DNA from: a virus
DNA: 38,533 nucleotides
IMG/VR virus record: IMGVR_UViG_3300045988_077292
Location: 1-38,533 of that record
Reading direction: 5' to 3' (one strand)
Shown here piece after piece: positions 1 through 19,887 of this stretch. Numbering within the stretch: position 1 is the first letter of the stretch; every line of letters starts with the position of its first letter. The notes beneath the pieces are model-generated. The model saw nothing but the letters and a program-made list of their open reading frames with translations, was not told where the DNA came from and searched no databases. The translations under genes were made by a program, and so were the position numbers.

Positions 1-55
1 AGCGGTGGATGGATAGGTAATGGAGTGTACGATGCATCGTTCACCAGTGACACAG
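1..55. repeat. Terminal overlap copy 1 (identical to 38479-38533)
   Basis: agcggtggatggataggtaatggagtgtacgatgcatcgttcaccagtgacacag occurs at both ends. This is typical of a circular contig closed by a k-mer overlap. Confidence 0.95.
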
Positions 56-3000: not shown

Positions 3001-4761
3001 TCCACACTGACGCGCAGCCAGATAATGCGGAGCGACGACAAGCTGAACAAAGCGCTGACTTCGTTCATGGCAGAACCGACGCTGACATACAACACGCTGT
3101 CGAACACGTACCTTGAGTACCAGAGACTGAAAGGTGCGGAGGGCGCGCAGACGGCGTGGAAGAAGTGCGGCGGGCAAATCGCCCGGGCGCTGGGCGTGTA
3201 CACGGTGAGCGCGGCGCTGCAAGCGGTAGTGGAGAGCATACCGGACGCATGGCGCGACGACGATGAGTACATGACGTTCATGGAAAAGTGGCTTGAAAAG
3301 TTCTGGGGCGAGGAGAGTTTCCTTGATGGCAACCTCGCGTCGGAGCTGAATCCGTTGAACAAGCTGCCGGTAATAAAGGATCTGCTCAATGCGCTGGAGG
3401 GACACGCATCAACCAATATGTCGACCGAGGGATTATCTTCGGCAGTGAAGTTCCTCAATACCTTCTGGGATAAAATCCAGTACTGGCTGGGAGAGACGGA
3501 CGGCTCAGACATAAAGGTCACAGATTGGGGCTGGATATATCAAGGGTTGAAAGCCGTGTCACAGTTGGTAGGCATACCGGGGTACAACATCGTGCGTGAT
3601 GTAGTAGGTGTTTGGAATTCAACCTTTGGCACATGGACGGATATGAGAATCAGAACGTATGCGGCGCGCCCGGAGAGCGAGATAAAGAACGCATACCTCA
3701 AGGGGTATCTGACTGATGAGGAAGCCAAGGAGCTGCTGATGGACGCCAAGACCATGGGCGACAATGTGTACTGGACTGAGCACGCCGCCACTGTACAGAT
3801 AAACGATTGGGCGAACGACAGCGGAGAGGTCTACGCAGATCTGTACACCGCAATGGAGAACGACGATCGCACGGCATACGACGCAGCGTTCAAGGCATTG
3901 ACCGACACGGGACGCTACGCCTACGACGTGCAGAGCAAGGTGAAAGAACAGATCAAGGAGTGGTATGCCGGGGACAAGCGCGGCAAGATTGTACTTGCGA
4001 AAGAGCAGACCATAGCAATGCTCAAGGAGTTCGGCGGCATGACAGACCATGACGCCAAGGTCACAGCACAGCAGTGGACGTGCAAGCAACAGGAGGGCTT
4101 TGACTACAGCCAGAGAAAGAAGCTGTTCCTCTCCGGGGACATTGACAAAACAGAAGCGGTGTACTTGATAAAGACCTATGGTGTGGACGACGACGGGAAG
4201 CTGCTGGCGGACTATAAGGACAAGACCAAGGCAAACGCAATCGCGGAAAAGGAAGTGCGCAAGTGGTCGATGATAACCGAACAGGGCATAGACTACGACG
4301 ATATGCGCGACGCCTACAATGCCGGTGAGATCACACTGGCGCAGGTCAAGGAGTGGAGCATGGATTACGGCAGTGAGGATGAGAAAACCGCAGACAACAA
4401 GTGCTACCGCTGGGAATGGATAGCCGGAAGCGAAGAGCTGAAAGGAACGACCGGCGCACAGGCGCGGAGGTACGACACTTACATTGCTGCGGCGAACGTG
4501 GACATGACCAAGGAGCAGTATTACAATTACATCGACGGTCACGAAGCGAATACGTTCCACGCAGACCTCATGCCGGGGAGCACAACGGTGTATATAAAGT
4601 ACTCCAAACGAGACAAGGCATGGGCATACATTGACAGTCTGCCGATCACGGCAGCACAGAAGGACGCGCTGGCAATGTGCTACGCTGCGGACAACAGCAA
4701 AGAACTGAATAACCCCACAAAGACTTGGATGATGCTTGAAGACGCCCCGTGGAACAACTGA
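1..4761 (+). CDS. C-terminal 1586 codons of the giant 2852-aa polyvalent-type virion protein (continues from 34681-38533 across the circular junction)
   Basis: Frame 1 is open from nt 1 to TGA 4759-4761. The listed ORF 25..4761 is only its internal GTG. The same frame is open to the very end of the window, and 38479 is equivalent to nt 1. It contains an FFKRFG motif (1609-1635) and long helical regions. Confidence 0.85.
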   Translation, partial: SGGWIGNGVYDASFTSDTARYIERQQAKKRVAELRGVPYDQFDDGNIRYSRRDVGLDDTAEQRRGRQESYADLRRRNAELERRVEYWKGQTRTSKAATVRQTDTDAFARQLMNDAYNSDRETLGKVKDSLKGLGDYIVQSRAEDLDYATIHEIATETADMILQGSYTTIDDTNADNREQLHDYLHSTKLAMNEREMLDLPEGWRQKNRGNIKLSKDGLPVDTAYGELQGMFGEGTFPSDITSQADMLQRIADVERAWRPVKANPFAEYMAEMRENMAQEIIDTMLSDEIRQTPPTAMDRAVARETERVAGERRKNRELQQRIAQVQQEGIERTRKAVQDERRFQLQRQERAQKVKNIEKMITRWAKQLTDNTGKSHIPDALKQPIGQLIRSIDPTTKYTTAKGSAALADRLRRVGDALEKQQKYNMGDTAEGGADVYIDLPPEIGSRLREYAEDIEDAASIRREWKLEDMDLQELAELEDMLTSVRDSLKNANELYSMNMKADALGDETVKYLNKLPAKTKAARFEEKFLGYTNQTPVYFFKRFGTGGEKVFKSLADGWEDFAFKANAIREFAEKLYNSKEVREAEQTIVQVQLHDKLANGLTNEETVPVYMTKAQIMCLYGATLRGEAALNHILGAGIKLTDIKQPRGKDTITQSDNYLTTAEELESIINDNLSERDKEIVRGMIKFMSTTCANWGNAVSQKRWGINLFTEDSYWPISTDSRSRDVKSGEAAGSSTSMYRLANMGFTKPLTPGSTNPMVIGSAFDVFANHTSDMAKYGSMVLPILDAMKWINYSATMETSGTQYTTASVRKAMDRAYGVDAQNYFVKLMRDLNGSKEGGRETNGLETWTARYKRQAVSGNLRVMLLQPTAYARAGMVIDPKYLVVGAIGQHEVIKNYREAIANSGTALWKSMGFYDVNINASMRDLIKNDESAVDKVVDWTMKGAELGDQWTWSMIWRACRTEQQDIARKGREQLTHEELMQRTAERFQEVIYQTQVMDSTLTRSQIMRSDDKLNKALTSFMAEPTLTYNTLSNTYLEYQRLKGAEGAQTAWKKCGGQIARALGVYTVSAALQAVVESIPDAWRDDDEYMTFMEKWLEKFWGEESFLDGNLASELNPLNKLPVIKDLLNALEGHASTNMSTEGLSSAVKFLNTFWDKIQYWLGETDGSDIKVTDWGWIYQGLKAVSQLVGIPGYNIVRDVVGVWNSTFGTWTDMRIRTYAARPESEIKNAYLKGYLTDEEAKELLMDAKTMGDNVYWTEHAATVQINDWANDSGEVYADLYTAMENDDRTAYDAAFKALTDTGRYAYDVQSKVKEQIKEWYAGDKRGKIVLAKEQTIAMLKEFGGMTDHDAKVTAQQWTCKQQEGFDYSQRKKLFLSGDIDKTEAVYLIKTYGVDDDGKLLADYKDKTKANAIAEKEVRKWSMITEQGIDYDDMRDAYNAGEITLAQVKEWSMDYGSEDEKTADNKCYRWEWIAGSEELKGTTGAQARRYDTYIAAANVDMTKEQYYNYIDGHEANTFHADLMPGSTTVYIKYSKRDKAWAYIDSLPITAAQKDALAMCYAADNSKELNNPTKTWMMLEDAPWNN

Positions 4762-4948: not shown

Positions 4949-5962
4949 ATGAACAGCAAAAAATATTGGCTACAGTACTTCGCTGACGGCGCACCTGCAG
5001 GAGACGGCGGCGGAGACGGAGCCGCAGCGGGCGTAGACAGTCCTGCCGCCGCCGGGCAGGGAGAGAGCACAAGCACTCTGGAAAGACTGGGAGTTCCGAA
5101 GGACAAGGTCAAAAGGTATGAAGCGTCGAGGCAGCGGCGCGGGATGAGAACGGAAGCGGCACAGCCGCCTGAGACGTCCCCGGCTGCGGCAGAGGCAGAA
5201 GCCGAAGAAAGTGACGCCGGAGCGGGCGCACAGACCAAGCCGAAGTGGGACGACATTCTGAAAGACCCGGAGTATAAAGCGGCATTCGATTCACAGGTGA
5301 GCGGGATCCTCAGCAAGCGTCTTGCCAAGGCGAACGAGCGGGAGCAGAGCATGGCAAAGCTCACCCCGGCGCTGGAAATGCTGGCGAAGAAGTACGGCGT
5401 GGACGCGCGGGACTTCGACGGCTTGACGGCGAAGATCGTTGACGACGACAACATGTACCGCGAGCGCGCAGCAGAGATGGGCGTGGACGTGAAGACCGCC
5501 AAGCTGCTCGCCCAGAACGAGAACATGGTGGAGCACGAGAAGGCGGAGAAGCAGAACTTCATCCAGCAGCAGATGGTGATGAACCATATCGCCAAGCTCA
5601 ATGAGCAGGGCAACGCGCTGAGAGCGGAGTTCCCGGACTTCAACCTTGAAGCCGAGATGCAGAACGATATGTTCGTGAAGCTGACGCAGCCGGGTATGCT
5701 GTCGGTCGAGGACGCATACAAGGCGGTGCACCGCAAGGAGATCGAGGCCGCAAAGAAGCAGGCAATGGAGCAGCAGGCAATGATCGCTGCCCAAGCCGCA
5801 GTGAGAGCGGGACAGGCGCGTCCCCGTGAGAACGGGGCGGGTGCTGCCGCAACGATAACCCGCGTACCTCCGGCACAGCGGAGCAAAGCGGAAAGAGAAG
5901 AACTGAAACGCCGCATATACGCGGCGGACGCGAGAGGAGAAAAGCTGCCCGTAGACTGGTAG
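4949..5962 (+). CDS. Scaffolding protein (337 aa from ATG 4949)
   Basis: The protein is A/E/K/Q-rich and helical, and lies immediately upstream of the capsid gene. GGAGG at 4936-4940 sits 8 nt before ATG 4949. The N-terminus MNSKKYWLQYFAD parallels the capsid N-terminus. The track start 4934 is less likely. Confidence 0.75.
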   Translation: MNSKKYWLQYFADGAPAGDGGGDGAAAGVDSPAAAGQGESTSTLERLGVPKDKVKRYEASRQRRGMRTEAAQPPETSPAAAEAEAEESDAGAGAQTKPKWDDILKDPEYKAAFDSQVSGILSKRLAKANEREQSMAKLTPALEMLAKKYGVDARDFDGLTAKIVDDDNMYRERAAEMGVDVKTAKLLAQNENMVEHEKAEKQNFIQQQMVMNHIAKLNEQGNALRAEFPDFNLEAEMQNDMFVKLTQPGMLSVEDAYKAVHRKEIEAAKKQAMEQQAMIAAQAAVRAGQARPRENGAGAAATITRVPPAQRSKAEREELKRRIYAADARGEKLPVDW

Positions 5963-5996
5963 CGCACATCCTCTCGGATAAGGAGAGGAAAACATA

Positions 5997-7139
5997 ATGA
6001 ACAAATTCAAATGGCTGCAGTATTTTGCAGACGCCGGTACGCTTGTCAATGCGACCGGCAACTACGTCAACGCATACACCGGCGACACCACGGCATTCTC
6101 CGGCACGAACGACCTCACAGGGGAGCTGAAAACGTTCTATGACACGGAGCTGTTGGAGAACGCGCGCATCGAACTGTACTACGCTCAGTTCGGCAAGCGT
6201 CAGTCGCTCCCCAAGAACCACGAAGGCAAGGTGGAATGGAGAAAGTTCAACACCTTTGCCCGTGCGGACAAACTCGTCGAGGGCGTTATCCCCACCGGCC
6301 AGAAGCTCGGCATGAGCAAAGTGACCGGCGCTGTCGACCAGTATGGTACTTACACGGCGGTCACGGACAAGCTGGAGCTGCGCGCGTATGACCCGATAAT
6401 CCTTGCGGCGACCGAAGAGATGGGCGCAAGCGCGGCGGAGACACAGGAGAAGCTGACGCGCGACGCGCTGCTTGTCGGCACGAACGTTGTGTACTGCGAC
6501 AACATCGACAAGGAGACCCGCAAGGTGCTGAGCACACCCACGTCCTGCAAGACTATGGGCGCGGGCGGCACCACCACTCCGACCGGGGACGGCACTGCGA
6601 CGCCGGACGGCTGGGCGCTGCTCACGGCGGCGATGGTGGACAAGATCGTCACCATCATGAAGAAGAACCGCGCACCGCGCATCAACGGTTACTACTATGC
6701 AGTAGCCCACCCGTCCGTGCTGTACGATCTGCGCCGTGACCCGGAGTGGATAGAGGCGCACAAGTACGCCGCGCCCGACGCGCTGTTCAACGGCGAGATC
6801 GGCGAGATCGGCGGCGTGCGCTTCATAGAAGACGTGTTTGCGCCGGTGCTGGGCGTGAAGGGCGCAAGCGCCGCGCAGGATGACGAGTACGTCAACAAGG
6901 AGCGAGGCAGGAGCTATGCGACGTACTTCTTCGGCAAGGAAGCCTTCGGCATCATCGACCCGGAGGGCGGCGCGATGGAGATGATCGTGCACGACAAGTC
7001 CGAGATAGGCGGACCGCTGGATCAGTTCAGCACCATCGGCTACAAGCTGGAAACCAACGGCGCGACCATCCTCTACCCGGAGCGTATGCTGCGAGTGATG
7101 AGCGTGTCCTCTTTCAGCGCAGAGGACGAAACCAACTGA
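5997..7139 (+). CDS. Major capsid protein (HK97-fold type, 380 aa)
   Basis: Size and position after the scaffold gene fit. The pattern KTFYDTELLENAR...YAQFGKRQSLPKN.GKVEWRKF is typical of Firmicutes-phage major capsid proteins. RBS AAGGAGAGG. A strong hairpin follows the gene. Confidence 0.8.
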   Translation: MNKFKWLQYFADAGTLVNATGNYVNAYTGDTTAFSGTNDLTGELKTFYDTELLENARIELYYAQFGKRQSLPKNHEGKVEWRKFNTFARADKLVEGVIPTGQKLGMSKVTGAVDQYGTYTAVTDKLELRAYDPIILAATEEMGASAAETQEKLTRDALLVGTNVVYCDNIDKETRKVLSTPTSCKTMGAGGTTTPTGDGTATPDGWALLTAAMVDKIVTIMKKNRAPRINGYYYAVAHPSVLYDLRRDPEWIEAHKYAAPDALFNGEIGEIGGVRFIEDVFAPVLGVKGASAAQDDEYVNKERGRSYATYFFGKEAFGIIDPEGGAMEMIVHDKSEIGGPLDQFSTIGYKLETNGATILYPERMLRVMSVSSFSAEDETN

Positions 7140-7529: not shown

Positions 7530-7910
7530 ATGAAAGCGATGGAGATGATAGACCGGGTCGACCTCATGGAACCAAACGCATACAGTCCGGAACAGAAGCT
7601 GCGCTGGCTGTCCGTGCTCGACGGCAAGGTATATGAGGAAGTAATCCGCCCGCACGAGAAAACGCCGGGCGGATTCGCCGAATATGAGAACGGAGACGAG
7701 GAGCTGCTGATACCGTTCCCGTATGACTACGACGTATACTATCAGTATCTGCAAGCAATGATCGCGGCGGAGAACGCCGAGGGGCAGCGGTACAACAAGC
7801 GCATGGCAATGTTCAACAGCGCCTATGCCGCGTATGTCAACTGGTACTGCCGCAACCACAATATGTCCGCGGTGCAGGAGGGTGAGACCCCAAAGCACTT
7901 TTTGTTTTAG
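7530..7910 (+). CDS. Probable head-tail connector/adaptor protein (126 aa)
   Basis: RBS GAGAGGAG and position after the capsid gene. The motif EQKLRWLSVLDGKVYEEV with a Tyr-rich C-terminus resembles small phage connector proteins. The family was not verified. Confidence 0.5.
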   Translation: MKAMEMIDRVDLMEPNAYSPEQKLRWLSVLDGKVYEEVIRPHEKTPGGFAEYENGDEELLIPFPYDYDVYYQYLQAMIAAENAEGQRYNKRMAMFNSAYAAYVNWYCRNHNMSAVQEGETPKHFLF

Positions 7911-7920
7911 GAGGGCGACA

Positions 7921-9666
7921 ATGTTTCTGCCGGAATGGGATTATGAATATGAGACCCGCGACGTAACGGAAACGTTCGGCGGGTATGACCACCATTTGAA
8001 GATAGCAGACGGGATGTTCTACGAGACCAAAAACCTCACGAGCGCTTTCTCCCCGCTGCTCGCAGAGCGAAAGAAGCGCGGACTGGTCAAGCAGCTTACT
8101 GCACCGGGCGGACTGCTGGGCAAGGACGAGCTTGCCTACGTGGACAACGGGACGCTCTACTACAACGACGCGGCAACGCCGGTGACAAACCTCACGTCCG
8201 GCGAGAAGCAGCTCGTGAGCATGGGCGCGTACATCTGCGTGTTCCCGGACAAGGTGTACTACAACACGGCGGACGCGACGGACTACGGCAGCATGGAAGC
8301 GTACTACACCTCAACCGGCACGGTGAAGTACACGATGTGCAACGTGCAGGGTGTAGACTACGCGACGCCGACGAAGTCCGCCACGGCTCCCGAAAACCCG
8401 GAGAACGCGGCACTGTGGATAGACACATCACAGAACACACACGTGCTCAAGCAGTACAGCAGCGCAATCAAGGAATGGAACACCATCCCAACGGTGTACA
8501 CGAAAATACAGTTTATTTCGCAGGGCGAAGTGCCACAGCATTTCAGCGAGTACGACGGCGTGACCATCACGGGCGCGGACGGCGCGGACGTGAACGGTGA
8601 CAAGGTCATATATGCAATCGGCGGCAGCGAAACTGGGTTCGACTACATTGTGGTTGTCGGTTTGCTTGAACAAGCGTACACGCAGGAGACCGGCGTGGTA
8701 AGCTTGAGCCGGTCAGTGCCGCAGATGGATTTTGTGTGCGAAAGTCAGAACAGACTGTGGGGCTGCTACTACGGCAGTGACGGAGAGAAGAACCTCAACG
8801 AAATATACTGCTGTGCCTTGGGCGACTTCAAAAACTGGCGGCAGTACATGGGACTGGCGACGGATTCATGGACTGCCTCGGTCGGCTCAGACGGCGCGTG
8901 GACAGGCGCGGTTAACTACCTCGGCTACCCCACGTTCTTCAAGGAAGACAGAATACACCGCGTGTCGATCTCTACCATCGGTGCACACCAAATCACCGAG
9001 ACGGCGTGCCGCGGCGTGCAGAAGGGCAGCCACAAGAGCCTGGCGGTCGTCAATGAACTGCTGCTGTATAAATCCCGGAGCGACGTGTGCGCATACCAGG
9101 GCGGCTTCCCAACGTCAGTGTCGGAGGCGCTGGGCGATGAGCTGTATGACAACGCAGTGGCCGGGGCGGTGCGCGACAGATACTACATCAGCATGACCGA
9201 CAGAGCGGGAACACCGAACCTCTTCGTGTACGACATAGGCAAGAAGCTGTGGATGCACGAGGATGATCTCAAGATAGATGACTTCGCCCGGGTGGACGAT
9301 GAACTGTACGCGCTGAGCGGGAAGCTGCTGTATGCACTGCTCGGCAGCAAGGGAGAGCTGGAACCGTTCGTCAGCTGGACGGCGGAGACCGGCATACTTT
9401 ACTATCAGCAGCCGGAAAAGAAATACGTCTCACGCTTCAATGTCCGCATTCAGATGGAGGAAGGCGCAGAGCTGAATATGTACATTCAATACGATTCGAG
9501 CGGGGCGTGGGAACGCCGCGGCACGGTGCGGCTCAAGGGAACAAACACTGTGACGGTGCCAATACGCCCGCGGCGCTGTGACCATATGCGGCTCCGCCTT
9601 GAGGGTAAAGGCATGTTCCGCCTGTTCTCCATAGCGAAAATCGTGGTGTATGGGAGTGACATATAA
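7921..9666 (+). CDS. Large tail/baseplate-type structural protein (581 aa from ATG 7921)
   Basis: AGGAGGG at 7909-7915 sits 5 nt before ATG 7921. The longer track ORF from 7825 overlaps the previous gene. The protein is beta-rich and repetitive (YYN, LYAL, WGCYYG) and lies between the connector and fibre genes. Confidence 0.55.
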   Translation: MFLPEWDYEYETRDVTETFGGYDHHLKIADGMFYETKNLTSAFSPLLAERKKRGLVKQLTAPGGLLGKDELAYVDNGTLYYNDAATPVTNLTSGEKQLVSMGAYICVFPDKVYYNTADATDYGSMEAYYTSTGTVKYTMCNVQGVDYATPTKSATAPENPENAALWIDTSQNTHVLKQYSSAIKEWNTIPTVYTKIQFISQGEVPQHFSEYDGVTITGADGADVNGDKVIYAIGGSETGFDYIVVVGLLEQAYTQETGVVSLSRSVPQMDFVCESQNRLWGCYYGSDGEKNLNEIYCCALGDFKNWRQYMGLATDSWTASVGSDGAWTGAVNYLGYPTFFKEDRIHRVSISTIGAHQITETACRGVQKGSHKSLAVVNELLLYKSRSDVCAYQGGFPTSVSEALGDELYDNAVAGAVRDRYYISMTDRAGTPNLFVYDIGKKLWMHEDDLKIDDFARVDDELYALSGKLLYALLGSKGELEPFVSWTAETGILYYQQPEKKYVSRFNVRIQMEEGAELNMYIQYDSSGAWERRGTVRLKGTNTVTVPIRPRRCDHMRLRLEGKGMFRLFSIAKIVVYGSDI

Positions 9667-9776
9667 TGCGGAACCTTGAATACCCGCCGATGCTTGAGGG
9701 CACGGCGGAGGAGCAGCTGCGGCAGCTGAGAGAGTATCTTATCCGGCTTATCCAGAAACTCAACGAAGAGGAATGA
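9666..9776 (+). CDS. Small 36-aa ORF (MRNLEYPPMLEGTAEEQLRQLREYLIRLIQKLNEEE), coupled to the preceding gene
   Basis: TAATG stop/start overlap at 9664-9668. It fills the gap before 9781 and is predicted helical. It is below the length cutoff of the ORF track. Confidence 0.4.
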   Translation: MRNLEYPPMLEGTAEEQLRQLREYLIRLIQKLNEEE

Positions 9777-9780
9777 AACT

Positions 9781-11705
<1,925 letters not shown>

Positions 11706-11709
<4 letters not shown>

Positions 11710-12874: not shown

Positions 12875-13320
12875 CCAAGACCGAGACGCTCGCCGTTATA
12901 CGCGACAGCGCCCGCAATGCGGCGCTCTATCTCCAAACCTGCGCCGGAAACATGACCGGCACGGAGCTGTACGCCGAGGAGGAGTATATCCCCTCATTCG
13001 CCGCCATGTCCGCCTCCGGCAATATGCTTGACCGCCCCGAGGGCTTTGTCTGTCGCTCTTCGGCTGGGCGCGTCGTGTGGCTCATACAGCCCTACAACAG
13101 CGGCATCTACCCCGGAGAGCCGGAGACGCTGCCTGCACAGTGGGGCTTTAAGTGGTCGACCGACCCGGCTAAAGCGCTGCCGTTTATCTCGCTCTCAACA
13201 AGCCCGTACATGACCGGCGACTGCTGCACCGACGGCGGCAAGACGTACCGGAGCAAGATGGACAACAACGTGTATTCCCCGGCGGACTATCCCGCCGGAT
13301 GGGAGGAGGTTACATCATGA
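12871..13320 (+). CDS. Hypothetical protein with a CBM5/12-like C-terminal motif (149 aa)
   Basis: ATGA coupling. The C-terminus YMTGDCCTDGGKTYRSKMDNNVYSPADYPAGWEEV resembles the Y..GD...Y.G..Y......P....W carbohydrate-binding pattern. Confidence 0.5.
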   Translation: MTKTETLAVIRDSARNAALYLQTCAGNMTGTELYAEEEYIPSFAAMSASGNMLDRPEGFVCRSSAGRVVWLIQPYNSGIYPGEPETLPAQWGFKWSTDPAKALPFISLSTSPYMTGDCCTDGGKTYRSKMDNNVYSPADYPAGWEEVTS

Positions 13321-14024
13321 GCATCAACCAAGACGCCGTAGCGTGGGCACGGCGCATTGCCGCCGACGACAGTCACGGCTACGACCAGACCAACCGCTGG
13401 GGCGCGGATTACGATTGCAGCAGCTTTGTGATCAGTGCATTTAAGGCGGCGGGCGTGCCTCTGGAGTGTACATACACCGGCGATATGCGCGGGGATATGC
13501 TGCGCCGGGGCTTTGCGGACGTCACAGCGTCCGTCAACCTTTCAAGCGGCGCGGGCGTGCAGGAGGGCGACGTACTGCTCAACTACGCGCGACACACGTC
13601 GCTCGCCATCGGCGGCGGACGCATCGTACAGGCGAGTATCAACGAGCGCGGCACGGCGACAGGCGGTACGCCCGGCGATCAGACCGGCAGGGAGATATAC
13701 GAGCGCGCGTACTACAACTACCCGTGGGACTGCGTGCTGCGGTACGTCGGTGATGGCGCGGCAGATGAAGAGGCCGGCGGAGAGTATGTGCCGTCGTACT
13801 GGTACTCCATCAAGCTGCCGCTGCTCAAGCAGGGCATGACGGACCACTCGGTCAACACCGTGCAGCACCTACTGAGGGCATACGGCTATTATGTCGGAGA
13901 CATTACCGGCACGATGGACGCCGCAACCGTCGAGGCGGTCAGGGGTTATCAAGCGAGCCAATGGCTGGATATAGACGGTGAGGTCGGCGTCTTGACGTGG
14001 GGCGTCCTGCTGCAAAGGGGGTGA
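13317..14024 (+). CDS. Endolysin: Cys-His peptidoglycan hydrolase domain (Amidase_5 / CHAP-NlpC-P60 superfamily) plus C-terminal PG_binding_1 domain
   Basis: YDCSSFV with a downstream ARHTSLAIGGG gives the Cys/His signature. The C-terminus GMTDHSVNTVQHLLRAYGYYVGDITGTMDAATVEAVRGYQ...DGEVGVLTWGVLL is a classic peptidoglycan-binding repeat. ATGA coupling at 13317. Confidence 0.85.
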   Translation: MSINQDAVAWARRIAADDSHGYDQTNRWGADYDCSSFVISAFKAAGVPLECTYTGDMRGDMLRRGFADVTASVNLSSGAGVQEGDVLLNYARHTSLAIGGGRIVQASINERGTATGGTPGDQTGREIYERAYYNYPWDCVLRYVGDGAADEEAGGEYVPSYWYSIKLPLLKQGMTDHSVNTVQHLLRAYGYYVGDITGTMDAATVEAVRGYQASQWLDIDGEVGVLTWGVLLQRG

Positions 14025-14082
14025 GGCAGGCATGAGATAGACGATTTAACAGCATGCTCAACGCTTAAACATGGAGGATAAA

Positions 14083-14352
14083 ATGTATATCACTTGGCAG
14101 AGCATCGTGACCGCGGGGGCGGTCATCACGGCGATCGTCGCAATCGTCAAATACTACAACCGCGGTCTGCACTGGGTCGACCGCCAGAACGCGCAGGACG
14201 CAGACATCAAGCTGCTCAAGGACGAGCAGACGCTGCTGACCTATGGCGTGCTGGCGTGTCTCAAAGGGCTAAAGGAGAAGGGCTGCAACGGCCCCGTGAC
14301 GGCAGCCATCGACAAAATCGAGAAGCACCTCAATATCGAAGCACACAAATAA
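14083..14352 (+). CDS. Putative holin / lysis membrane protein (89 aa, one N-terminal TM plus a charged helix)
   Basis: GGAGG sits 5 nt before ATG 14083. It has a TM segment IVTAGAVITAIVAIV and lies next to the endolysin. Confidence 0.6.
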   Translation: MYITWQSIVTAGAVITAIVAIVKYYNRGLHWVDRQNAQDADIKLLKDEQTLLTYGVLACLKGLKEKGCNGPVTAAIDKIEKHLNIEAHK

Positions 14353-14387
14353 AAAAGTGCCCAGACGGGCACGGAAGGAGAAAAATT

Positions 14388-14717
14388 ATGAATGAGATAA
14401 TCACAACCTACGGCATGGAGATTGTTAAGGCAATCGTCATAATGATCTTTGGCTATATCGGCATCGTCCTCAAAAACCTTGCCGCCAAGTACATCACGAC
14501 CGAGACGGCTAAAAAGGTCGCCAAGACCACGGTGGCCTACGTGGAGCAGGTGTACAAGGATATCCACGGAGAGGACAAGCTCGCCGTCGCGCTCAAGACC
14601 GCGTCGGAGATACTCGCGAACAAGGGCATAGTTGTAACTGACACCGAGCTGCGTGCCCTCGTCGAGGCCGCGGTCAAGGAGCTTAACGACAGATACCACG
14701 AGACCCAGAACGAATAA
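14388..14717 (+). CDS. Holin, LL-H-like family (109 aa)
   Basis: RBS GGAAGGAG, N-terminal TM IVKAIVIMIFGYIGIVL, then AKKVAKTTVAYVEQ...GEDKL...ILANKGIVVTDTELRALVEAAVKELN, which is characteristic of LL-H type holins. Confidence 0.75.
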   Translation: MNEIITTYGMEIVKAIVIMIFGYIGIVLKNLAAKYITTETAKKVAKTTVAYVEQVYKDIHGEDKLAVALKTASEILANKGIVVTDTELRALVEAAVKELNDRYHETQNE

Positions 14718-14738: not shown

Positions 14739-15002
14739 ATGGAATACTACAATGCGGCAAGAGGCAGACTGCCGGAAGAACTGGCGGCGCTCATGCGCGA
14801 CGACCGAGTGACCGCGATAAAACAGGCGGGGCTTGGACGCATGGATGAGCAGATAGCTATCCAGTACTTTATAGAACGCATCCCGCAAGCAGACGTGGCG
14901 GTGATAGTCGGACGCGAGCGCTCGACCGTGACGCGCAGACTGAAAGCTATCACGCCGCAAATCCGCCACACTGCGGCGCTCTTGTCAAAGCTGCCGCAGT
15001 AA
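14739..15002 (+). CDS. Small sigma-70 region-4-like HTH protein (87 aa), candidate transcription regulator
   Basis: DEQIAIQYFIERIPQADVAVIVGRERSTVTRRLKAI matches the sigma region 4 / LuxR-type HTH pattern. RBS GGGAGG. Confidence 0.5.
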   Translation: MEYYNAARGRLPEELAALMRDDRVTAIKQAGLGRMDEQIAIQYFIERIPQADVAVIVGRERSTVTRRLKAITPQIRHTAALLSKLPQ

Positions 15003-15132
15003 TACAAAAGCAAGCAAAAAAGAGACACCAACACAAAGGTGTCAAGTGCTTTCTGCAAATTTCTCAAAAAACCCGGAACAAACCGTACACGGCTGTGGAC
15101 TACTTACCGCAGTAATACACATAAGTGCACAG

Positions 15133-15170
15133 AAGCACCGCAGGGATTCACCCCGCGGTGCTTTGCTTTT
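15133..15170 (+). terminator. Rho-independent terminator closing the late/lysis operon
   Basis: AAGCACCGC(a)GGG attcac CCCGCGGTGCTT followed by TGCTTTT. Confidence 0.75.
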
Positions 15171-15201
15171 GAGATAATAGATACAGAAAGGGTGTGACAC
15201 T

Positions 15202-15573
15202 ATGGGTTACAACAACATGGGCAATGTCCCATATTACGGACAGCCGCAGTACCAGATGCAGAGCGGGAACATCCAGCAGCCGATGAATGCAGTTTCTCAG
15301 CCGGGATATTCAGTGCGCCCGGTGGGCAGCCGGGAAGAGGCAGTCGGTGCGCAGGTGGACTTCATGGGTCCCGGCACACTCATGCCGGACTTCGGGCATG
15401 GAGTGATCTATTTCAAGAGATTCAATCCAAACAAGGGGTCGACAGAACTCTTTGACTTCCGGGTTACACCTCCGGAGGAGCAGCCCAAGTATGCGACGCT
15501 CGCGGACCTTGATGCGCTGCGCGCGGAGCTGACAGCGAAGAAACCGGCAAGGAGGAAAGACGATGCCGAATAG
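15202..15573 (+). CDS. Accessory protein 1: Gln/Pro/Tyr-rich N-terminus, folded C-terminus (123 aa), unknown function
   Basis: Clean ORF after the terminator, starting MGYNNMGNVPYYGQPQYQMQSGNIQQP. Confidence 0.55.
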   Translation: MGYNNMGNVPYYGQPQYQMQSGNIQQPMNAVSQPGYSVRPVGSREEAVGAQVDFMGPGTLMPDFGHGVIYFKRFNPNKGSTELFDFRVTPPEEQPKYATLADLDALRAELTAKKPARRKDDAE

Positions 15574-15889
15574 TATGCTTGACAGGATAATCCCGCCGCA
15601 GATGCGCAGCAACCTCAAGGGAATGGCGACACAGGCGATAGGCGGGATGAAGCAGATGGGGCAGATGGCAACGGAAGCGGAGACCATAATGACCCTCGTA
15701 AGCGCTTATAAGAGCGGCAACCTCGCGTCGGTAATACAGCAGCTCTCTGCACAGAATCCACAGATGCAGCAAGCAATGGGAATGCTGCAAGGCAAGGACA
15801 CCCAGCAGCTCCAGCAGATGGCGCAGAACATGGCAGCAGAACGGGGCATGAAAATGGAGGACGTGGCGAAGAGCCTAGGACTTATGTGA
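15563..15889 (+). CDS. Accessory protein 2: Met/Gln-rich helical protein (108 aa), unknown function
   Basis: Overlaps the previous gene by 11 nt. Composition is QMGQMATEAE...QNPQMQQAMGMLQGKDTQQLQQMAQNMAAERGMKM. Confidence 0.5.
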   Translation: MPNSMLDRIIPPQMRSNLKGMATQAIGGMKQMGQMATEAETIMTLVSAYKSGNLASVIQQLSAQNPQMQQAMGMLQGKDTQQLQQMAQNMAAERGMKMEDVAKSLGLM

Positions 15890-15995
15890 ACATAGATTCC
15901 TATCAGTTTAGCAGGTACTTGATGAAAAACTGCGCGACCCAGAATGCAGCGGGGCGCGCGACCCGGTGTAAATAAATTGATAGGAGAAAAACAAA

Positions 15996-16760
15996 ATGTC
16001 TTACAACGAGGCAATCCCCGTGGTAGATGTAGCGGGGAACGGAGGCGGCAACAGCTTCCTCGGCGGCGACGGTCTTGCCGCGATAATCATCATAGCACTG
16101 CTCTTCGGTTGGGGACGCGGCGGCTATGGCAACGGCAACGGTGACGGAGGCGGCAACGCCAGCGGCGCAGCTGCGGGCTATGTGCTGGCGACGGACTTCG
16201 CAAACATCGAGCGGAAGATAGACGGCGTGAACAACGGGCTGTGTGACGGCCTCTATGCACAGGCACAGCTTGTCAACGGAGTTACGCAGTCTATTGGCAA
16301 CGGCTTTGCGGCGGCGGAGCTGAGCCGCGCCAACCAGCAGGCGGCACTTATGCAGCAGCTTTACGGCATGCAGCGGGCGGCGGACAACTGCTGCTGTGAG
16401 AACCGACAGGCTATCGCACAGGTGCGCTACGACATGGCAACGCAGAGCTGCGACACGCGCAACACCGTGCAGACGGCGACCCGTGACGTGATCGATGCGC
16501 TCAATGCGGGCTTCCGCGGGATAGACCAGCGTCTGACCATGCAGGAGCTTGCGGCGAAGGACGCAAGAATCGCGGAGCAGGACCGTCAGCTGTTCCTGTC
16601 TGCGCTTGCCGGGTCCCAGGCAACACAGACGGAATCCCTCAAGGCATATGTGAACAACCAGTTCACGTATTACAATCCTCGCCCTGTCCCGTCGTTCAGC
16701 GTCCCGGCTCCATTCCAGTATACGGGGTGCGGTAATGGCTGCGGCAATTGCGGCTGCTGA
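15996..16760 (+). CDS. Accessory protein 3: Gly-rich/TM N-terminus, helical core with a CCC triplet, C-terminal GCGNGCGNCGC tail (254 aa)
   Basis: RBS AGGAGAAAAACAAA ATG. It has a TM segment LAAIIIIALLFGW flanked by G/N-rich tracts, and terminal Cys-Gly repeats. Confidence 0.6.
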   Translation: MSYNEAIPVVDVAGNGGGNSFLGGDGLAAIIIIALLFGWGRGGYGNGNGDGGGNASGAAAGYVLATDFANIERKIDGVNNGLCDGLYAQAQLVNGVTQSIGNGFAAAELSRANQQAALMQQLYGMQRAADNCCCENRQAIAQVRYDMATQSCDTRNTVQTATRDVIDALNAGFRGIDQRLTMQELAAKDARIAEQDRQLFLSALAGSQATQTESLKAYVNNQFTYYNPRPVPSFSVPAPFQYTGCGNGCGNCGC

Positions 16761-16812
16761 CAGCAAGGTGTATCGGGGCGGATAACCTCCGCCCTTGAAA
16801 GGAGGAGCAATT

Positions 16813-17205
16813 ATGTCTTGTAAGAATGTATGCCGTCTCTGCAAGCGGCTTGTCATCAGCCAAGCTGTGACCTACGACAGCGGGGTGCTCACCGTCAACC
16901 TCCCCGATGGGAGCTATGCGGACGGAGAAAAGTACTGCATCGTGATAGCACAGACTATTCCGTCAACGGCGATCATCGGCGCGCCGGTGGTGTTCACTAT
17001 CGGCACGGGAACGGCGACCTTCCCCATGGTCAACCGCTGCTGTGCACAGGTGACGGCAGCAGGCATCAGAACGCGAACGAGGTACAGCGTTGTGGTGAAC
17101 ACGAGCACCACAGGGGCAAGCTTCAAAATGCTTGGGAATCCTTGCTGCACGCCGGACTACTCTCTGCCGGCAGTCAGCACGGCGACGGGAGGTGTGACCA
17201 CATGA
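16813..17205 (+). CDS. Accessory protein 4: Cys-rich beta-type protein (130 aa from ATG 16813)
   Basis: AAAGGAGGA sits 6 nt before ATG 16813. Starts MSCKNVCRLCKRL and carries CC pairs at NRCCAQ and NPCCTP. Confidence 0.55.
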   Translation: MSCKNVCRLCKRLVISQAVTYDSGVLTVNLPDGSYADGEKYCIVIAQTIPSTAIIGAPVVFTIGTGTATFPMVNRCCAQVTAAGIRTRTRYSVVVNTSTTGASFKMLGNPCCTPDYSLPAVSTATGGVTT

Positions 17206-17777
17206 GAAATGGACGCATGATATTTCTCCCCGACAGCGGGGTAGAACCCGGACGCGACGGACGCTACGACGATCTGCGCCCGGCACGGTACGCCAGAGAG
17301 AGCGAGCCGCGGTATGAACGGACACCCTACTACTATCGTGAGCCGCGCCGCATAGGCTTTGACAGAGACCCATACTCACGCCGCTACGGCGACACACGGA
17401 TGGGCGGAGGCCAGAGCTACGGCGTAGACTACAGCCGCGGGTACGGCGGGTACAGCGAGTATGACGGCGACGAGTGCCTGAGCTGGGAAGAGGCAAAGGA
17501 CTGGATGATGCACCTGCGCGACACGGACGGTAAGACCGGTCCGCATTGGAACATCGACCAGACCAACAAAGCCTTTGAAAAGAAAAAGCTCGACTGCGAG
17601 CCGCACGAGTTCTGGGCGACGATGAACATGCTGTATTCCGATTACGGCAGCGTCGCAAAAAAATTCGGCGTAGACAACGCGGACTTCTTCGCGTGCCTCG
17701 CCGAGGCTTTCCTCAATGACGACGACGCCGTTGAGAATAAGCTGGCTACCTACTATGACTGTATAGTGGAGCATTGA
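17202..17777 (+). CDS. Accessory protein 5: Arg/Tyr/Gly/Asp-rich disordered N-terminus plus conserved-looking helical C-terminal domain (191 aa)
   Basis: ATGA overlap with the previous stop (17202-17205). The longer track ORF from 16830 overlaps gene 4 out of frame, so I discarded its N-terminal part. Confidence 0.55.
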   Translation: MRNGRMIFLPDSGVEPGRDGRYDDLRPARYARESEPRYERTPYYYREPRRIGFDRDPYSRRYGDTRMGGGQSYGVDYSRGYGGYSEYDGDECLSWEEAKDWMMHLRDTDGKTGPHWNIDQTNKAFEKKKLDCEPHEFWATMNMLYSDYGSVAKKFGVDNADFFACLAEAFLNDDDAVENKLATYYDCIVEH

Positions 17778-17782
17778 AACGG

Positions 17783-17808
17783 AGAGCCGGGGAATCCCCC
17801 GGCTCTTT
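17783..17808. terminator. Bidirectional terminator between convergent genes
   Basis: AGAGCCGGGG aatc CCCCGGCTCT is a perfect 10-bp stem, followed by TTGCACGTTTTATTTT. It lies between the + gene ending at 17777 and the integrase ending at 17816. Confidence 0.7.
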
Positions 17809-17815
17809 GCACGTT

Positions 17816-19408
17816 TTATTTTCTTGGAACACAAAAGCAAAGCAAACTCTGTGTTATAAGAATTCTTGGTGCCGGTGACCCTACACCGTCAATTCTTATA
17901 ACTGTCTCGGAATCATCTGAGAAATCAAAGTCGCCACGGGGCGTGGGGTCAAGCAATGTCCACACTTTTATAAAGTCGGCATGGACTTCCACGCGGACAA
18001 CTATACTCAAAAGCAAATCATCGGTCTCTGGGGACCGGGCAAACATATTGAGAATTTCCCGCAGTTTATCTTCGGAGACTGACGCCCCGGAGACTTGGGC
18101 TTTAAGCTGGAGCATATCATGTTCCAGCTTTGCTTTTTCTGCTTCCAGCTCGGTGAGCTTGGCGGAGAGAGCGGGACTGTTCAGCCCGGACAACACAGCG
18201 TCAACGGCGGCAGCAATGCGCTTGTCAACTGCGCTGCGGCGGGTCACGAGCTGCTGCAGCTTTTCCCCGGCGCTGCCTTGAAGCTTGCTGCGCTCATCAC
18301 GCAGAATAGCCAAAAGATATTCGACATTGGCGGGAAGGCAAAACAGCTCGCGCATAGTGTCAAGCACGCGCACCTCCAAGTCGTCTACACGAATCGGCAT
18401 ACAATCACACTTGCCCTTGCGCTGCTTGGCGGAGCAAGCATAGTAATAGTACTTCCCTTTTGCCTTGGACACGACCATCGCACTTTTGCATTCTCCGCAG
18501 AACACTTTACCCTTGAGCGGGTAGCTGCGCACGACGGGCGCGCGCCCGGCTTGACTTCGTTTGTTCTCTTGCAGCTTGCGTTGCACACGCTCCCATGTAC
18601 ATCTATCTATGATGGCGGGTACGGCGTCCTCAACACGAATGACAGAGGACGCGGAAGCGTGAGAGTTGCGGCTTCCGTCCGGTCGCTTCTCGACTTTACC
18701 ATAGGTGAGAACACCGATATACTTTTCATTCTTGAGTAAGTCATGCAGAGAGTTTGTGCCGAAGGAGTTGCCGGACTTCGTGGTATACCCAGCTTCGTTG
18801 AGCGCGCGGATGATCTCTCTGTACGTCTTGCCCGATGCATACCACTTGAAAATACTGCGGACTATTTCAGCTTCAGCCTCGCACACGACGTAGCGCCCGT
18901 CGACCACGTTATAGCCCAGCGGGGGCTTGCCGCCTGTATGTCTCCCCTGCTGTGCCAGGAAGCGCATCTTCTCCGTGACCTTCTGCCGTGTCTGCAAAAC
19001 CCAGATCTGATTGAAGAGTGCCATGCTCCCCTCGGTCAAGAAGTTTGTGGGGTCGCGCAGGTCTCCGCCAACCATAGGCTGAGTGACGGAGACAACACGC
19101 ACACCAAGGCGCTCGACCTTTTCGCGGAAGTCAAACCACGCCGTCATCTTGCGAAACATACGGGACTGATCATAGATGACCACGGTGTCCGCACTGCCGA
19201 GAGAGAGCTGCCGCATCATGCGGCTGTATTCGGGGCGGTCATCCTTCATTCCGGAAACGGCCATGTCAGCAAACACATCAAGAACTGGCAAGCCGTTAGC
19301 GTCACACCAACGAGAGCATTTCACAACTTGAACTTCTATGCTGTCCTCATCCTGCCGGTCGGTACTATAACGCGCGAGTATGTACGCGCCATGATGAAGC
19401 GTGGTCAT
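17816..19408 (-). CDS. int: Large serine recombinase (integrase), 530 aa from ATG 19408
   Basis: YILARYSTDRQ is the catalytic Ser motif. A resolvase-like N-terminus is followed by a recombinase domain, a zinc ribbon (CGECKSAM...YYYACSAK...KCDC) and a C-terminal coiled coil. ATGA overlap with the upstream gene at 19405-19408. Confidence 0.9.
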   Translation of the reverse strand: MTTLHHGAYILARYSTDRQDEDSIEVQVVKCSRWCDANGLPVLDVFADMAVSGMKDDRPEYSRMMRQLSLGSADTVVIYDQSRMFRKMTAWFDFREKVERLGVRVVSVTQPMVGGDLRDPTNFLTEGSMALFNQIWVLQTRQKVTEKMRFLAQQGRHTGGKPPLGYNVVDGRYVVCEAEAEIVRSIFKWYASGKTYREIIRALNEAGYTTKSGNSFGTNSLHDLLKNEKYIGVLTYGKVEKRPDGSRNSHASASSVIRVEDAVPAIIDRCTWERVQRKLQENKRSQAGRAPVVRSYPLKGKVFCGECKSAMVVSKAKGKYYYYACSAKQRKGKCDCMPIRVDDLEVRVLDTMRELFCLPANVEYLLAILRDERSKLQGSAGEKLQQLVTRRSAVDKRIAAAVDAVLSGLNSPALSAKLTELEAEKAKLEHDMLQLKAQVSGASVSEDKLREILNMFARSPETDDLLLSIVVRVEVHADFIKVWTLLDPTPRGDFDFSDDSETVIRIDGVGSPAPRILITQSLLCFCVPRK

Positions 19409-19887
19409 CCCAGCCACCACGGGAGCGCGCACATGATGGCGGCGCGAGTGCTCACGCCGTAGTGCGTCTGCTCAATGATGGAGCGGCGGATCCATCCCAC
19501 ATTGGGGTTCAGCAGGTCAATAATAAAAAAGATGAGCACAAAGAAAACAAAGGTAACAAGCCCGGCAATGATACGCCCGTACAGCTCCGCGCGATGCCGG
19601 TCACGCCGCGCCTCTGCTTTCAGCTGCACAACAAGCGGGTCATTCGGCACGGTCACAGGCGGCGCGTCGCGGTGAGAGGCGCCGAGAATATCATCCACGC
19701 TGCCGCCGCAGACATTGATAATGTCGCACAGCAGAAAGAAAGATGGATTCTTCGGTTCCTCGCTGAGCACGCGCCGGACTGTCATGCCGGAGACCTCACA
19801 GCGCTTGGCAAGCTCATCGTAGCTCAGCCCGCTGGCAGAAACAAGCGCACGTATTCTCTCCATAACGGTCTCTTCCTTTTGCGTCAT
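19405..19887 (-). CDS. Membrane-anchored XRE-family HTH protein (160 aa), first gene of the integrase operon
   Basis: GGAGGAGGA RBS before ATG 19887. HTH SGLSYDELAKRCEVSGMTVRRVL, and C-terminal TM IIAGLVTFVFFVLIFFIIDLL. Confidence 0.7.
   Translation of the reverse strand: MTQKEETVMERIRALVSASGLSYDELAKRCEVSGMTVRRVLSEEPKNPSFFLLCDIINVCGGSVDDILGASHRDAPPVTVPNDPLVVQLKAEARRDRHRAELYGRIIAGLVTFVFFVLIFFIIDLLNPNVGWIRRSIIEQTHYGVSTRAAIMCALPWWLG

Follow-up and report, generated by a model that had tools for sequence, protein, structure and literature searches.

The stretch of DNA analysed here (hereafter, the window) comprises the 38,533 nucleotides (nt) of the IMG/VR virus record IMGVR_UViG_3300045988_077292, and contains at positions 15202–17777 (~2.6 kb) five partly overlapping plus-strand genes (g1–g5) with a hairpin terminator on either side. 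They represent the minimal form of an accessory cassette of five to eight genes that is widespread in temperate phages of gut Firmicutes. The cassette is a real, conserved operon, bounded by terminators and inherited as a block, and it occurs irrespective of the virion, lysis, and integration modules of the phages that carry it. Besides the cassette, the window has genes for terminase, portal, and major head proteins, for an 'internal virion protein', and for a tail fibre of the collagen-like kind, as well as a repressor-like gene, and this content identifies it as the genome of a temperate phage. The cassette consists of the following open reading frames (ORFs; aa, amino acids).

15202–15573, plus strand: g1, ORF of 123 aa
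15563–15889, plus strand: g2, ORF of 108 aa, overlapping g1 by 11 nt
15996–16760, plus strand: g3, ORF of 254 aa
16813–17205, plus strand: g4, ORF of 130 aa, with an alternative TTG start at 16795
17202–17777, plus strand: g5, ORF of 191 aa, whose ATG overlaps the stop codon of g4 (ATGA)

Conservation and co-inheritance of the cassette

Each of g1–g5 is preceded by a purine-rich ribosome-binding site, and the 11-nt overlap of g1 with g2 suggests translational coupling. In comparison with the related locus L008, the ratio of nonsynonymous to synonymous substitution rates (dN/dS) is 0.11–0.25 across all five genes (g1, 0.25; g2, 0.14; g3, 0.23; g4, 0.11; g5, 0.17), indicating purifying selection. 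Given these ORFs, ribosome-binding sites, and dN/dS ratios, together with thousands of homologues, the five co-oriented, partly overlapping, terminator-bounded genes described in an earlier annotation of the window (the sequence-only reading) are real, and the compositions it had given for all five proteins proved accurate on recount.

Relatives of g3 number at least 5999 in a metagenome protein collection clustered at 90%, mostly on contigs of ~40 kb, and g3 is found on at least 573 IMG/VR contigs. All the members of the g3 cluster that carry source names are designated 'hypothetical protein', and the phage collection searched contains no cultured phage with the cassette, its 22 g3 records being all metagenomic. 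According to the labels of genome bins, the hosts are mainly Oscillospiraceae and other Clostridia, with a few Lachnospiraceae, Bacilli (Coprobacillus), and Phascolarctobacterium; such labels are affected by the unreliable binning of phage contigs, one of which is labelled Bacteroidales.

Co-inheritance was examined in 121 g3-containing loci, in which ORFs were called and classified with iteratively built hidden Markov models (HMMs); the set is biased toward relatives of the query and includes near-duplicates, so that its fractions describe the set and not all phages, and fractions over 114 or 84 refer to the loci with enough flanking sequence. g1 and a small Met/Gln-rich gene of the g2 type are each present in 112/114 loci, and are accompanied at position 4 by a gene for a β-protein of ~130–140 aa (83/84 loci), and at position 5 by a gene with an Arg/Gly/Tyr/Asp-rich stretch (81/84 loci). 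The order (g1, Met/Gln-rich protein, g3, β-protein, and Arg/Gly/Tyr-rich protein) is fixed, and not one of the 121 loci has a cassette gene on the opposite strand. The sequence-only reading had held that genes never co-inherited in relatives would speak against a single system; the outcome is clearly the reverse, with the positions filled in 96–99% of the loci.

Apart from the window, six complete loci have the window type (g1-g2-g3-g4-g5), and 58 have the majority type (F-g1-M2-g3-B4-C5-D6), in which M2, B4, and C5 fill positions 2, 4, and 5, and D6 is an extra gene of ~106 aa. At position 2, the window-type g2 is found in 14 loci and the alternative M2 (PHROG 22984) in 98, and position 4 is occupied by the BclA_C-like family B4 (PHROG 20016) in 76/84 loci. 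Mixed cassettes also exist, combining, for example, g2 with B4, or C5 with a protein of the g5 family, DUF7841. Comparison with hhalign detected no homology between g2 and M2, g5 and C5, or g5 and D6 (probability, <2%), nor between g4 and B4 (probability, ≤1.3%, even with a 77-sequence g4 profile). As the alternatives at positions 2, 4, and 5 are without detectable homology and the order is constant, the cassette behaves like a constant framework in which parts can be exchanged.

The F protein of the majority type (PHROG 3754; ~125 aa) has an invariant Asp-Cys…Arg…His…Asp arrangement, a papain-like triad pattern, and is encoded in 96/114 loci and not in the window. Its gene, found for example at 6843–7226 of L004 and at 9815–10180 of L029, is located upstream of g1 in the main type, and 3′ of position 5 in some Bacilli loci; two loci contain a SprT-like zinc protease in its place. 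The F family has no Pfam match, and its profile gave nothing significant against the Protein Data Bank (PDB). The cassette may also be interrupted with its order kept, as by the minus-strand ORF annotated 'endonuclease' between M2 and g3 in L001 (5046–5597). In L019, g3 and B4 are separated by a 220-aa ORF (9019–9681), and enlarged g3–B4 gaps were observed in L011, L054, and L112 as well.

In 53 loci, a convergent integrase gene (serine or tyrosine type) is found no more than 1.5 kb downstream of the cassette; in another 40, the contig extends no further than 1 kb. The lysins of the upstream lysis genes also vary (M15, Amidase_2, lysozyme, CHAP, and NlpC/P60). Among the 87 loci with >7 kb of upstream sequence, the structural genes that adjoin the cassette in the window (internal virion protein, tail fibre, p281, and p149) are each found in 1–4, whereas g3 is present in all. 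In the complete genome of Dulem virus 35, furthermore, g3 is present and the capsid, portal, terminase, tail, and lysin genes of the window are all undetectable. A part of the virion would need a conserved attachment partner, and no such partner is shared among these phages; this is our main argument against the alternative named in the sequence-only reading, a tail module in an atypical place.

Cassette proteins and their families

Among the five proteins, only g3 has a strongly hydrophobic segment; g1, g2, and g5 have no strongly hydrophobic stretch, and g4 has one moderate internal stretch (residues 49–63). The N-termini of g1, g2, g4, and g5 are not signal-peptide-like, and none of the five proteins carries a lipoprotein signal. 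Library scans and sequence and profile searches of the PDB assigned none of the five to a catalytic family. The remote homology search proposed earlier was run against Pfam, PHROGs, NCBIfam, and PADLOC; its sole matches were DUF7841 and PHROGs that are uncharacterised, and the statement that no protein matches a nameable family was nearly right: g5 is a DUF7841 protein and g3 belongs to PHROG 16490, both of which are uncharacterised. The families of the cassette are already catalogued (PHROGs 16490, 21718, 20016, 22984, 28802, and 3754; DUF7841), with no function assigned to any of them, and our literature search found no paper on them.

The single hydrophobic segment of g3 (residues 26–40; GLAAIIIIALLFGWG) has Gly/Asn-rich flanks and is followed by a helical region of ~215 aa. 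The cysteines are positioned at 83, 132–134 (CCC), and 152, followed by a Cys/Gly tail (GCGNGCGNCGC), and Cys132–Cys134 are invariant in the homologues. Residues 13–254 match positions 19–281 of the 286 positions of PHROG 16490 (E-value, 4e-33), which is a full-length match to a phage family. In 31 homologues, the 30 residues before the segment contain 12 Lys/Arg residues versus 50 in the 30 residues after it. On the positive-inside rule, which is used for the prediction of membrane topology, this bias would place the short N-terminal tail outside and the helical domain of ~215 residues in the cytoplasm, and g3 is therefore predicted to be an N-out/C-in membrane anchor. The best PDB matches of the g3 profile, to influenza HA2, were not significant (E-value, about 0.1), and we treated this likeness as chance or coiled-coil bias. 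Single-sequence searches of the PDB with g3, g4, and g5 gave nothing significant. A YjcZ-type tiny sporulation membrane protein, considered as a candidate for the N-terminus of g3, did not appear in the general Pfam/NCBIfam output, no search dedicated to it having been made.

The product of g5 is composed of two parts, a disordered head (residues 1–83; 59% Arg, Tyr, Gly, and Asp) and a C-terminal domain (residues 84–185) that matches Pfam DUF7841 (PF25223; 76.7 bits against a cut-off of 25.2; E-value, 2.2e-21). The AlphaFold2 (AF2) model of this domain contains five helices, with a predicted local distance difference test score (pLDDT) of 84. A Foldseek search against the PDB revealed no fold relative, the best match being HIV matrix (E-value, 1.2; template modelling (TM) score, 0.3), and in a viral structure library only other DUF7841 proteins, from siphoviruses and crAss-like phages, matched the domain (TM score, 0.7–0.8). 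In crAss-like genomes, the DUF7841 gene adjoins the holin gene (e.g., cr4_1; L038, 3441–4067), and its annotation reads 'RNA polymerase sigma factor/ubiquitin-like protein'. These and other gut phages share with the cassette the domain family, the predicted fold, and, in the crAss-like genomes, the proximity to the holin, but lack the rest of the cassette and have Bacteroides as hosts. A solo DUF7841 gene of 120 aa was also found in a bacterial chromosome among sigma/anti-sigma pairs (L040/L041, 6001–6363), and further loci with the domain are L039, L127, and L128. The literature search yielded no mention of DUF7841, and nothing relevant on exosporium or Faecalibacterium prophages.

The β-rich g4 protein (130 aa) contains eight cysteines, starts with MSCKNVCRLC, and has CC pairs at residues 76–77 and 111–112. 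It has 2808 relatives, in 348 clusters at 50% identity; neither the window copy nor 55 family members matched Pfam, and no PDB match was obtained even with a deep profile. The Cys motifs are poorly conserved across the wider family, and a conserved metal site is therefore unlikely; a CxxxCxxC iron–sulfur site, which was also considered, found no support, the cysteines concerned lacking such conservation. In L043–L045, the deposited gene calls leave ~435 bp (5565–6001) blank between g3 and the DUF7841 gene; an HMM search places a g4-family ORF (start, 5612) in this gap, showing that g4 is under-called in public annotations. As for the alternative at position 4, B4 of Dulem virus 35 aligns over its full length with the BclA C-terminal domain (BclA_C, PF18573), with 30.3 bits and an E-value of 4.4e-7, under the Pfam cut-off of 38. 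The BclA_C model is matched by 3 of 19 B4 members, and the B4 family profile gave nothing significant against the PDB.

The g1 protein consists of a Gln/Pro/Tyr-rich N-terminus (43% of residues 1–37), a conserved core of ~50 aa, and a short, helical, charged C-terminus. The window copy matches PHROG 21718 weakly, and the L004 copy with an E-value of 7.5e-34; g1 has no Pfam match, and its family profile gave nothing significant against the PDB. The g2 product is a small helical protein with 30% Met and Gln (16 Met and 16 Gln residues). R-body Reb proteins and STI1/DP-like repeats, both considered for g2, were absent from the general Pfam/NCBIfam output, which was not supplemented by a dedicated test. 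In the 106-nt gap between g2 and g3 (15890–15995), GCGCGACCC and GGGGCGCGC make up a GC-rich but imperfect inverted repeat that is not followed by a T-run and could be an internal regulatory hairpin.

Boundaries and neighbouring genes

The features flanking the cassette in the window are as follows.

13299–14024, upstream: endolysin with ELLD, NlpC/P60, and PG_binding_1 domains
14071–14352, between endolysin and holin: small membrane protein gene
14385–14717, upstream of the cassette: LLH-type holin (holin_LLH)
14739–15002, plus strand: 87-aa helix-turn-helix (HTH) protein of the sigma-70 region-4 / KorA-TrfB / SorC-N type, between holin and cassette
15132–15170, plus strand: upstream terminator-like hairpin, with its core at 15135–15161 and then a U-rich tail (TTTGCTTTT)
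15170–15178, plus strand: extended −10-like box (TGAGATAAT), 24 nt before the g1 start; candidate cassette promoter
17780–17809, no strand assigned: downstream hairpin terminator, common to the convergent g5 and integrase genes
17816–19432, minus strand: large serine recombinase/integrase, convergent, downstream of the cassette

The cassette is thus located between the lysis genes and the integrase, as the sequence-only reading had stated, with the correction that the HTH gene intervenes after the holin. Its assignment to the moron, or lysogenic-conversion, position also stands, in that the operon is bounded by terminators and occupies the usual site of such genes. The upstream hairpin has a folding energy of −24.8 kcal/mol (z, −5.4) and the downstream one −27.7 kcal/mol (z, −6.0), the latter consisting in the terminator scan of 13 pairs, 9 of them G–C. 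The upstream stem is kept in L008, L010, and L026 with compensatory changes (GCACCGC/GCGGTGC versus GTACTGC/GCAGTAC); the downstream hairpin is kept in L008 and L026, and the homology of the window to both stops just past it. Over the non-redundant loci, a strict terminator-like hairpin precedes the first cassette gene in 48/93 (random windows, 8.6%), and one follows the last cassette gene in 35/91 loci (random windows, 5.7%).

In both types of cassette, a −10-like hexamer is located 24–26 nt before the first start codon: CATACT in the other type, and that of TGnGATAAT in the window type, where the box is conserved in four loci (the window, L008, L010, and L026). The box resembles a housekeeping extended −10 element, not one of the sigma-E/K type, and no good −35 element was seen in the candidate promoter region. 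A 'GCACA' box upstream of both cassette types was considered and dropped; the exact pattern matched no locus and the alignment was only loosely similar, and we claim no operator.

The HTH protein gave weak matches to Pfam HTH_24 (E-value, 0.007), TIGR02937 region 4 (0.011), and phrog_3512 'sigma factor' (0.007), and its profile matched SorC (6e-4) and KorA/TrfB (4e-3) in the PDB. Members of the family were found between the lysis genes and the cassette as 41 ORFs across the 121 loci, or in about a third of the loci, sometimes with 1–3 kb of other genes inserted before the cassette. The HTH protein may be the regulator of the cassette. A 13-nt direct repeat (CCGCAGTAATACA) is present at 14994–15006 and 15107–15119 (0 expected by chance). 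The segment between the two copies, which carries a minus-strand terminator-like hairpin (15024–15043), is missing from L008, L010, and L026, and has the appearance of a short inserted or duplicated stretch directly past the HTH stop codon.

Elsewhere in the window, a giant ORF (25–4761; 1578 aa or more) that matches PHROG 22978 begins at the edge, and the 'internal virion protein' homologue and the collagen-like tail fibre are encoded at 7825–9666 and 9781–11709, respectively. No tape-measure gene was seen. The phage is possibly podovirus-like, and the window could be a complete genome in circularly permuted form.

Possible roles of the cassette

As a class-level reading, we favour, tentatively and with somewhat less than even confidence, a self-contained accessory operon whose products assemble on the cytoplasmic side of the membrane into a complex anchored by g3 and act on the host cell. 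The products would function in the host cell and not in the virion, as a scaffold rather than as enzymes. g3 would insert into the cytoplasmic membrane with its short N-terminal tail outside and the long, Cys-bearing helical domain inside, and would anchor a complex made up of the β-rich g4, of g1 and g2, which are rich in Gln, Met, Pro, and Tyr, and of g5, with a disordered arm of Arg, Tyr, and Gly; the position-4 component would be a BclA_C/C1q-like jelly-roll in most relatives. As in a moron, transcription of the cassette probably starts at a putative promoter of its own just past the upstream terminator, and read-through at a late stage of infection may contribute as well. As to its role, our guess is a membrane-level function that would be useful to a phage whatever its particle type, for which superinfection exclusion or envelope control around lysis appears most plausible, the data favouring neither.

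Several observations weigh against the reading just described. A strict upstream terminator is missing in about half of the related loci, and many loci of the majority type (type B) have no terminator between the HTH gene and the cassette. The candidate promoter consists of a consensus-like box only, and the two matches of TGAGATAAT in the window do not significantly exceed the 0.54 expected. In Dulem virus 35, the minor-capsid gene stands on one side of the whole block and the scaffold/major-capsid genes on the other, with the lysin and integrase genes elsewhere, a placement that implies late transcription in that phage. The cassette has the same GC content (0.53–0.60) as the rest of the phage and shows much stronger conservation than is typical of cargo genes, and DUF7841 is found in two cultured virulent Bacteroides phages, among small non-structural genes. 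The composition of the 121-locus set described above must also be counted here. On the structural side, the contacts among the cassette proteins and the topology of g3 are inferred, and the AF2 model of g4 (eight strands; pLDDT, 43) was too poor for a fold search.

The most credible of the alternatives, although unlikely, is a late accessory to lysis or egress, which would extend the lysis module and act after the holin and endolysin to time or complete the breakdown of the membrane, S-layer, or similar envelope structure, with g3 as the membrane-active component. In 46 of the 121 loci, a recognised lysis gene is encoded on the cassette strand no more than 4 kb upstream (the seed set recognised none in 66 others), and in crAss-like phages DUF7841 adjoins the holin, as noted above. 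Moreover, g3 lies by the lysis genes and is laid out like an i-spanin (Rz type) or a class I viral fusion protein, with a Gly-rich hydrophobic N-terminal segment followed by a long, Cys-containing helical region, and had influenza HA2 as its best, non-significant profile match. This match is, however, within chance; the helical domain is predicted to be cytoplasmic, unlike the periplasmic coiled coil that the inner-membrane subunit of a two-component spanin has in a double-membrane host, the hosts are mostly single-membrane Firmicutes, and no outer-membrane lipoprotein partner is present. In addition, conserved terminators separate the window-type cassette from the holin, the cassette does not co-vary with the type of holin or endolysin, and in Dulem virus 35 the cassette is far from the lysis gene. 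Counter-defence or host takeover during lytic growth, by an intracellular scaffold or sponge acting on host factors, is improbable. The occurrence of DUF7841 in crAss-like phages and among small early-type genes of virulent Bacteroides phages, the predicted cytoplasmic location of all products but g3, and the non-homologous alternatives at positions 2, 4, and 5, which are compatible with an arms race, are in its favour. Nevertheless, no anti-defence family matched and PADLOC-DB returned noise-level matches only (JetA: E-value, 0.006, 13 bits; PD-T4-6: E-value, 0.08), a membrane anchor and low-complexity composition are unusual among known anti-defence proteins, and the same cassette is retained across very different phages without hotspot-type turnover.

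The spore-coat or exosporium analogy of the sequence-only reading received no direct support from the window proteins, which match no such Pfam/NCBIfam family, and has B4 with its BclA_C likeness as its sole indirect hint. The corresponding explanation, a sporulation-linked lysogenic conversion in which proteins made in the mother cell would be joined, by assembly or cross-linking, into a coat- or exosporium-like material on the forespore surface, is quite improbable. The host clades descend from spore formers, and the small Gln-, Cys-, and Tyr/Gly-rich proteins without signal peptides resemble in composition GerQ with the transglutaminase Tgl, CotY/ExsY, and CdeC; the Asp-Cys…His…Asp gene found upstream of g1 in many relatives could be protease- or transglutaminase-like. 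The stand-alone domain of B4 (~140 aa, β-rich, and without a signal peptide) resembles the trimeric C1q/TNF-like knob that BclA contributes to the nap of the Bacillus exosporium. The resemblance to the coat proteins is compositional only, however; spore-coat families (CotY/ExsY, GerQ, and similar) are absent from the Pfam/NCBIfam matches at E-values up to 0.1–1. The BclA_C score of B4 is under the Pfam threshold, no collagen-like stalk or repeats are present, the g4 of the window has no detectable relation to B4 or BclA_C, and its cysteines vary within the family. Furthermore, the −10 box is of the housekeeping kind, and some of the assigned hosts (Subdoligranulum and Phascolarctobacterium) are not known as spore formers. 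BclA_C/C1q-like knobs are also typical of phage fibre tips, and B4 could on that account belong to a part of the virion that is encoded at an atypical place, for example a decoration or a knobbed fibre whose assembly takes place in the cytoplasm. The cassette is co-oriented with the late genes everywhere and lies among the capsid genes in Dulem virus 35, but the capsid, portal, terminase, and tail genes of its carriers are unrelated and offer no common attachment partner, g3 has a membrane-type hydrophobic segment, and DUF7841 occurs among non-structural small genes in virulent phages; we consider a virion role very improbable. Least probable of all is that the genes are not one system but independent small cargo travelling together at a permissive site. 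The interchangeable, non-homologous parts and the solo occurrence of DUF7841 would suit such a collection, but the order and orientation fixed over 121 loci with nearly every position filled, the overlapping reading frames, the shared and conserved bounding terminators, and the relocation of the whole block in Dulem virus 35 argue for one unit.

Among known systems, the g3-anchored accessory operon that we favour comes closest in layout to morons (HK97 gp15, lambda bor and lom, and the genes of the Firmicutes lysin-to-attachment-site region), with which it shares the position at the end of the late operon by the integrase or prophage end, terminators on both sides, a −10-like box in front, a membrane protein, and independence from the virion genes. 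Morons, however, usually consist of one or two genes that vary between related phages and often differ in base composition from the phage, in contrast to the five to eight genes of the cassette, which are kept across unrelated phages. Because no defining feature of a known system other than the generic moron layout was found, we place the cassette outside the known kinds; its function may nonetheless prove ordinary, carried out by new proteins. A bolder version of the reading, which we regard as improbable to the same degree as counter-defence, is a membrane-anchored, phage-built assembly, perhaps cross-linked or condensate-like, that remodels the cell or forespore envelope of spore-forming gut Firmicutes. 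In such an assembly, g3 would be the anchor, position 4 would contribute a trimeric jelly-roll, and the Arg/Tyr/Gly- and Gln/Met-rich proteins would be linkers, with the Cys-His-Asp enzyme processing or cross-linking the parts in most variants. If this is true, the assembly could coat or mark prophage-carrying spores, or complete egress through the Gram-positive envelope; if the cassette is a superinfection-exclusion or lysis-accessory device, its interest would be moderate.

The retention of the cassette across phages without common virion, lysis, or integration genes suggests that it serves a need specific to gut Clostridia hosts or their habitat. With its small size, its natural part-swapped variants, and the minimal form present in the window, the cassette is a tractable target, and solving it would also give a function to DUF7841, a family that extends to the crAss-like phages.

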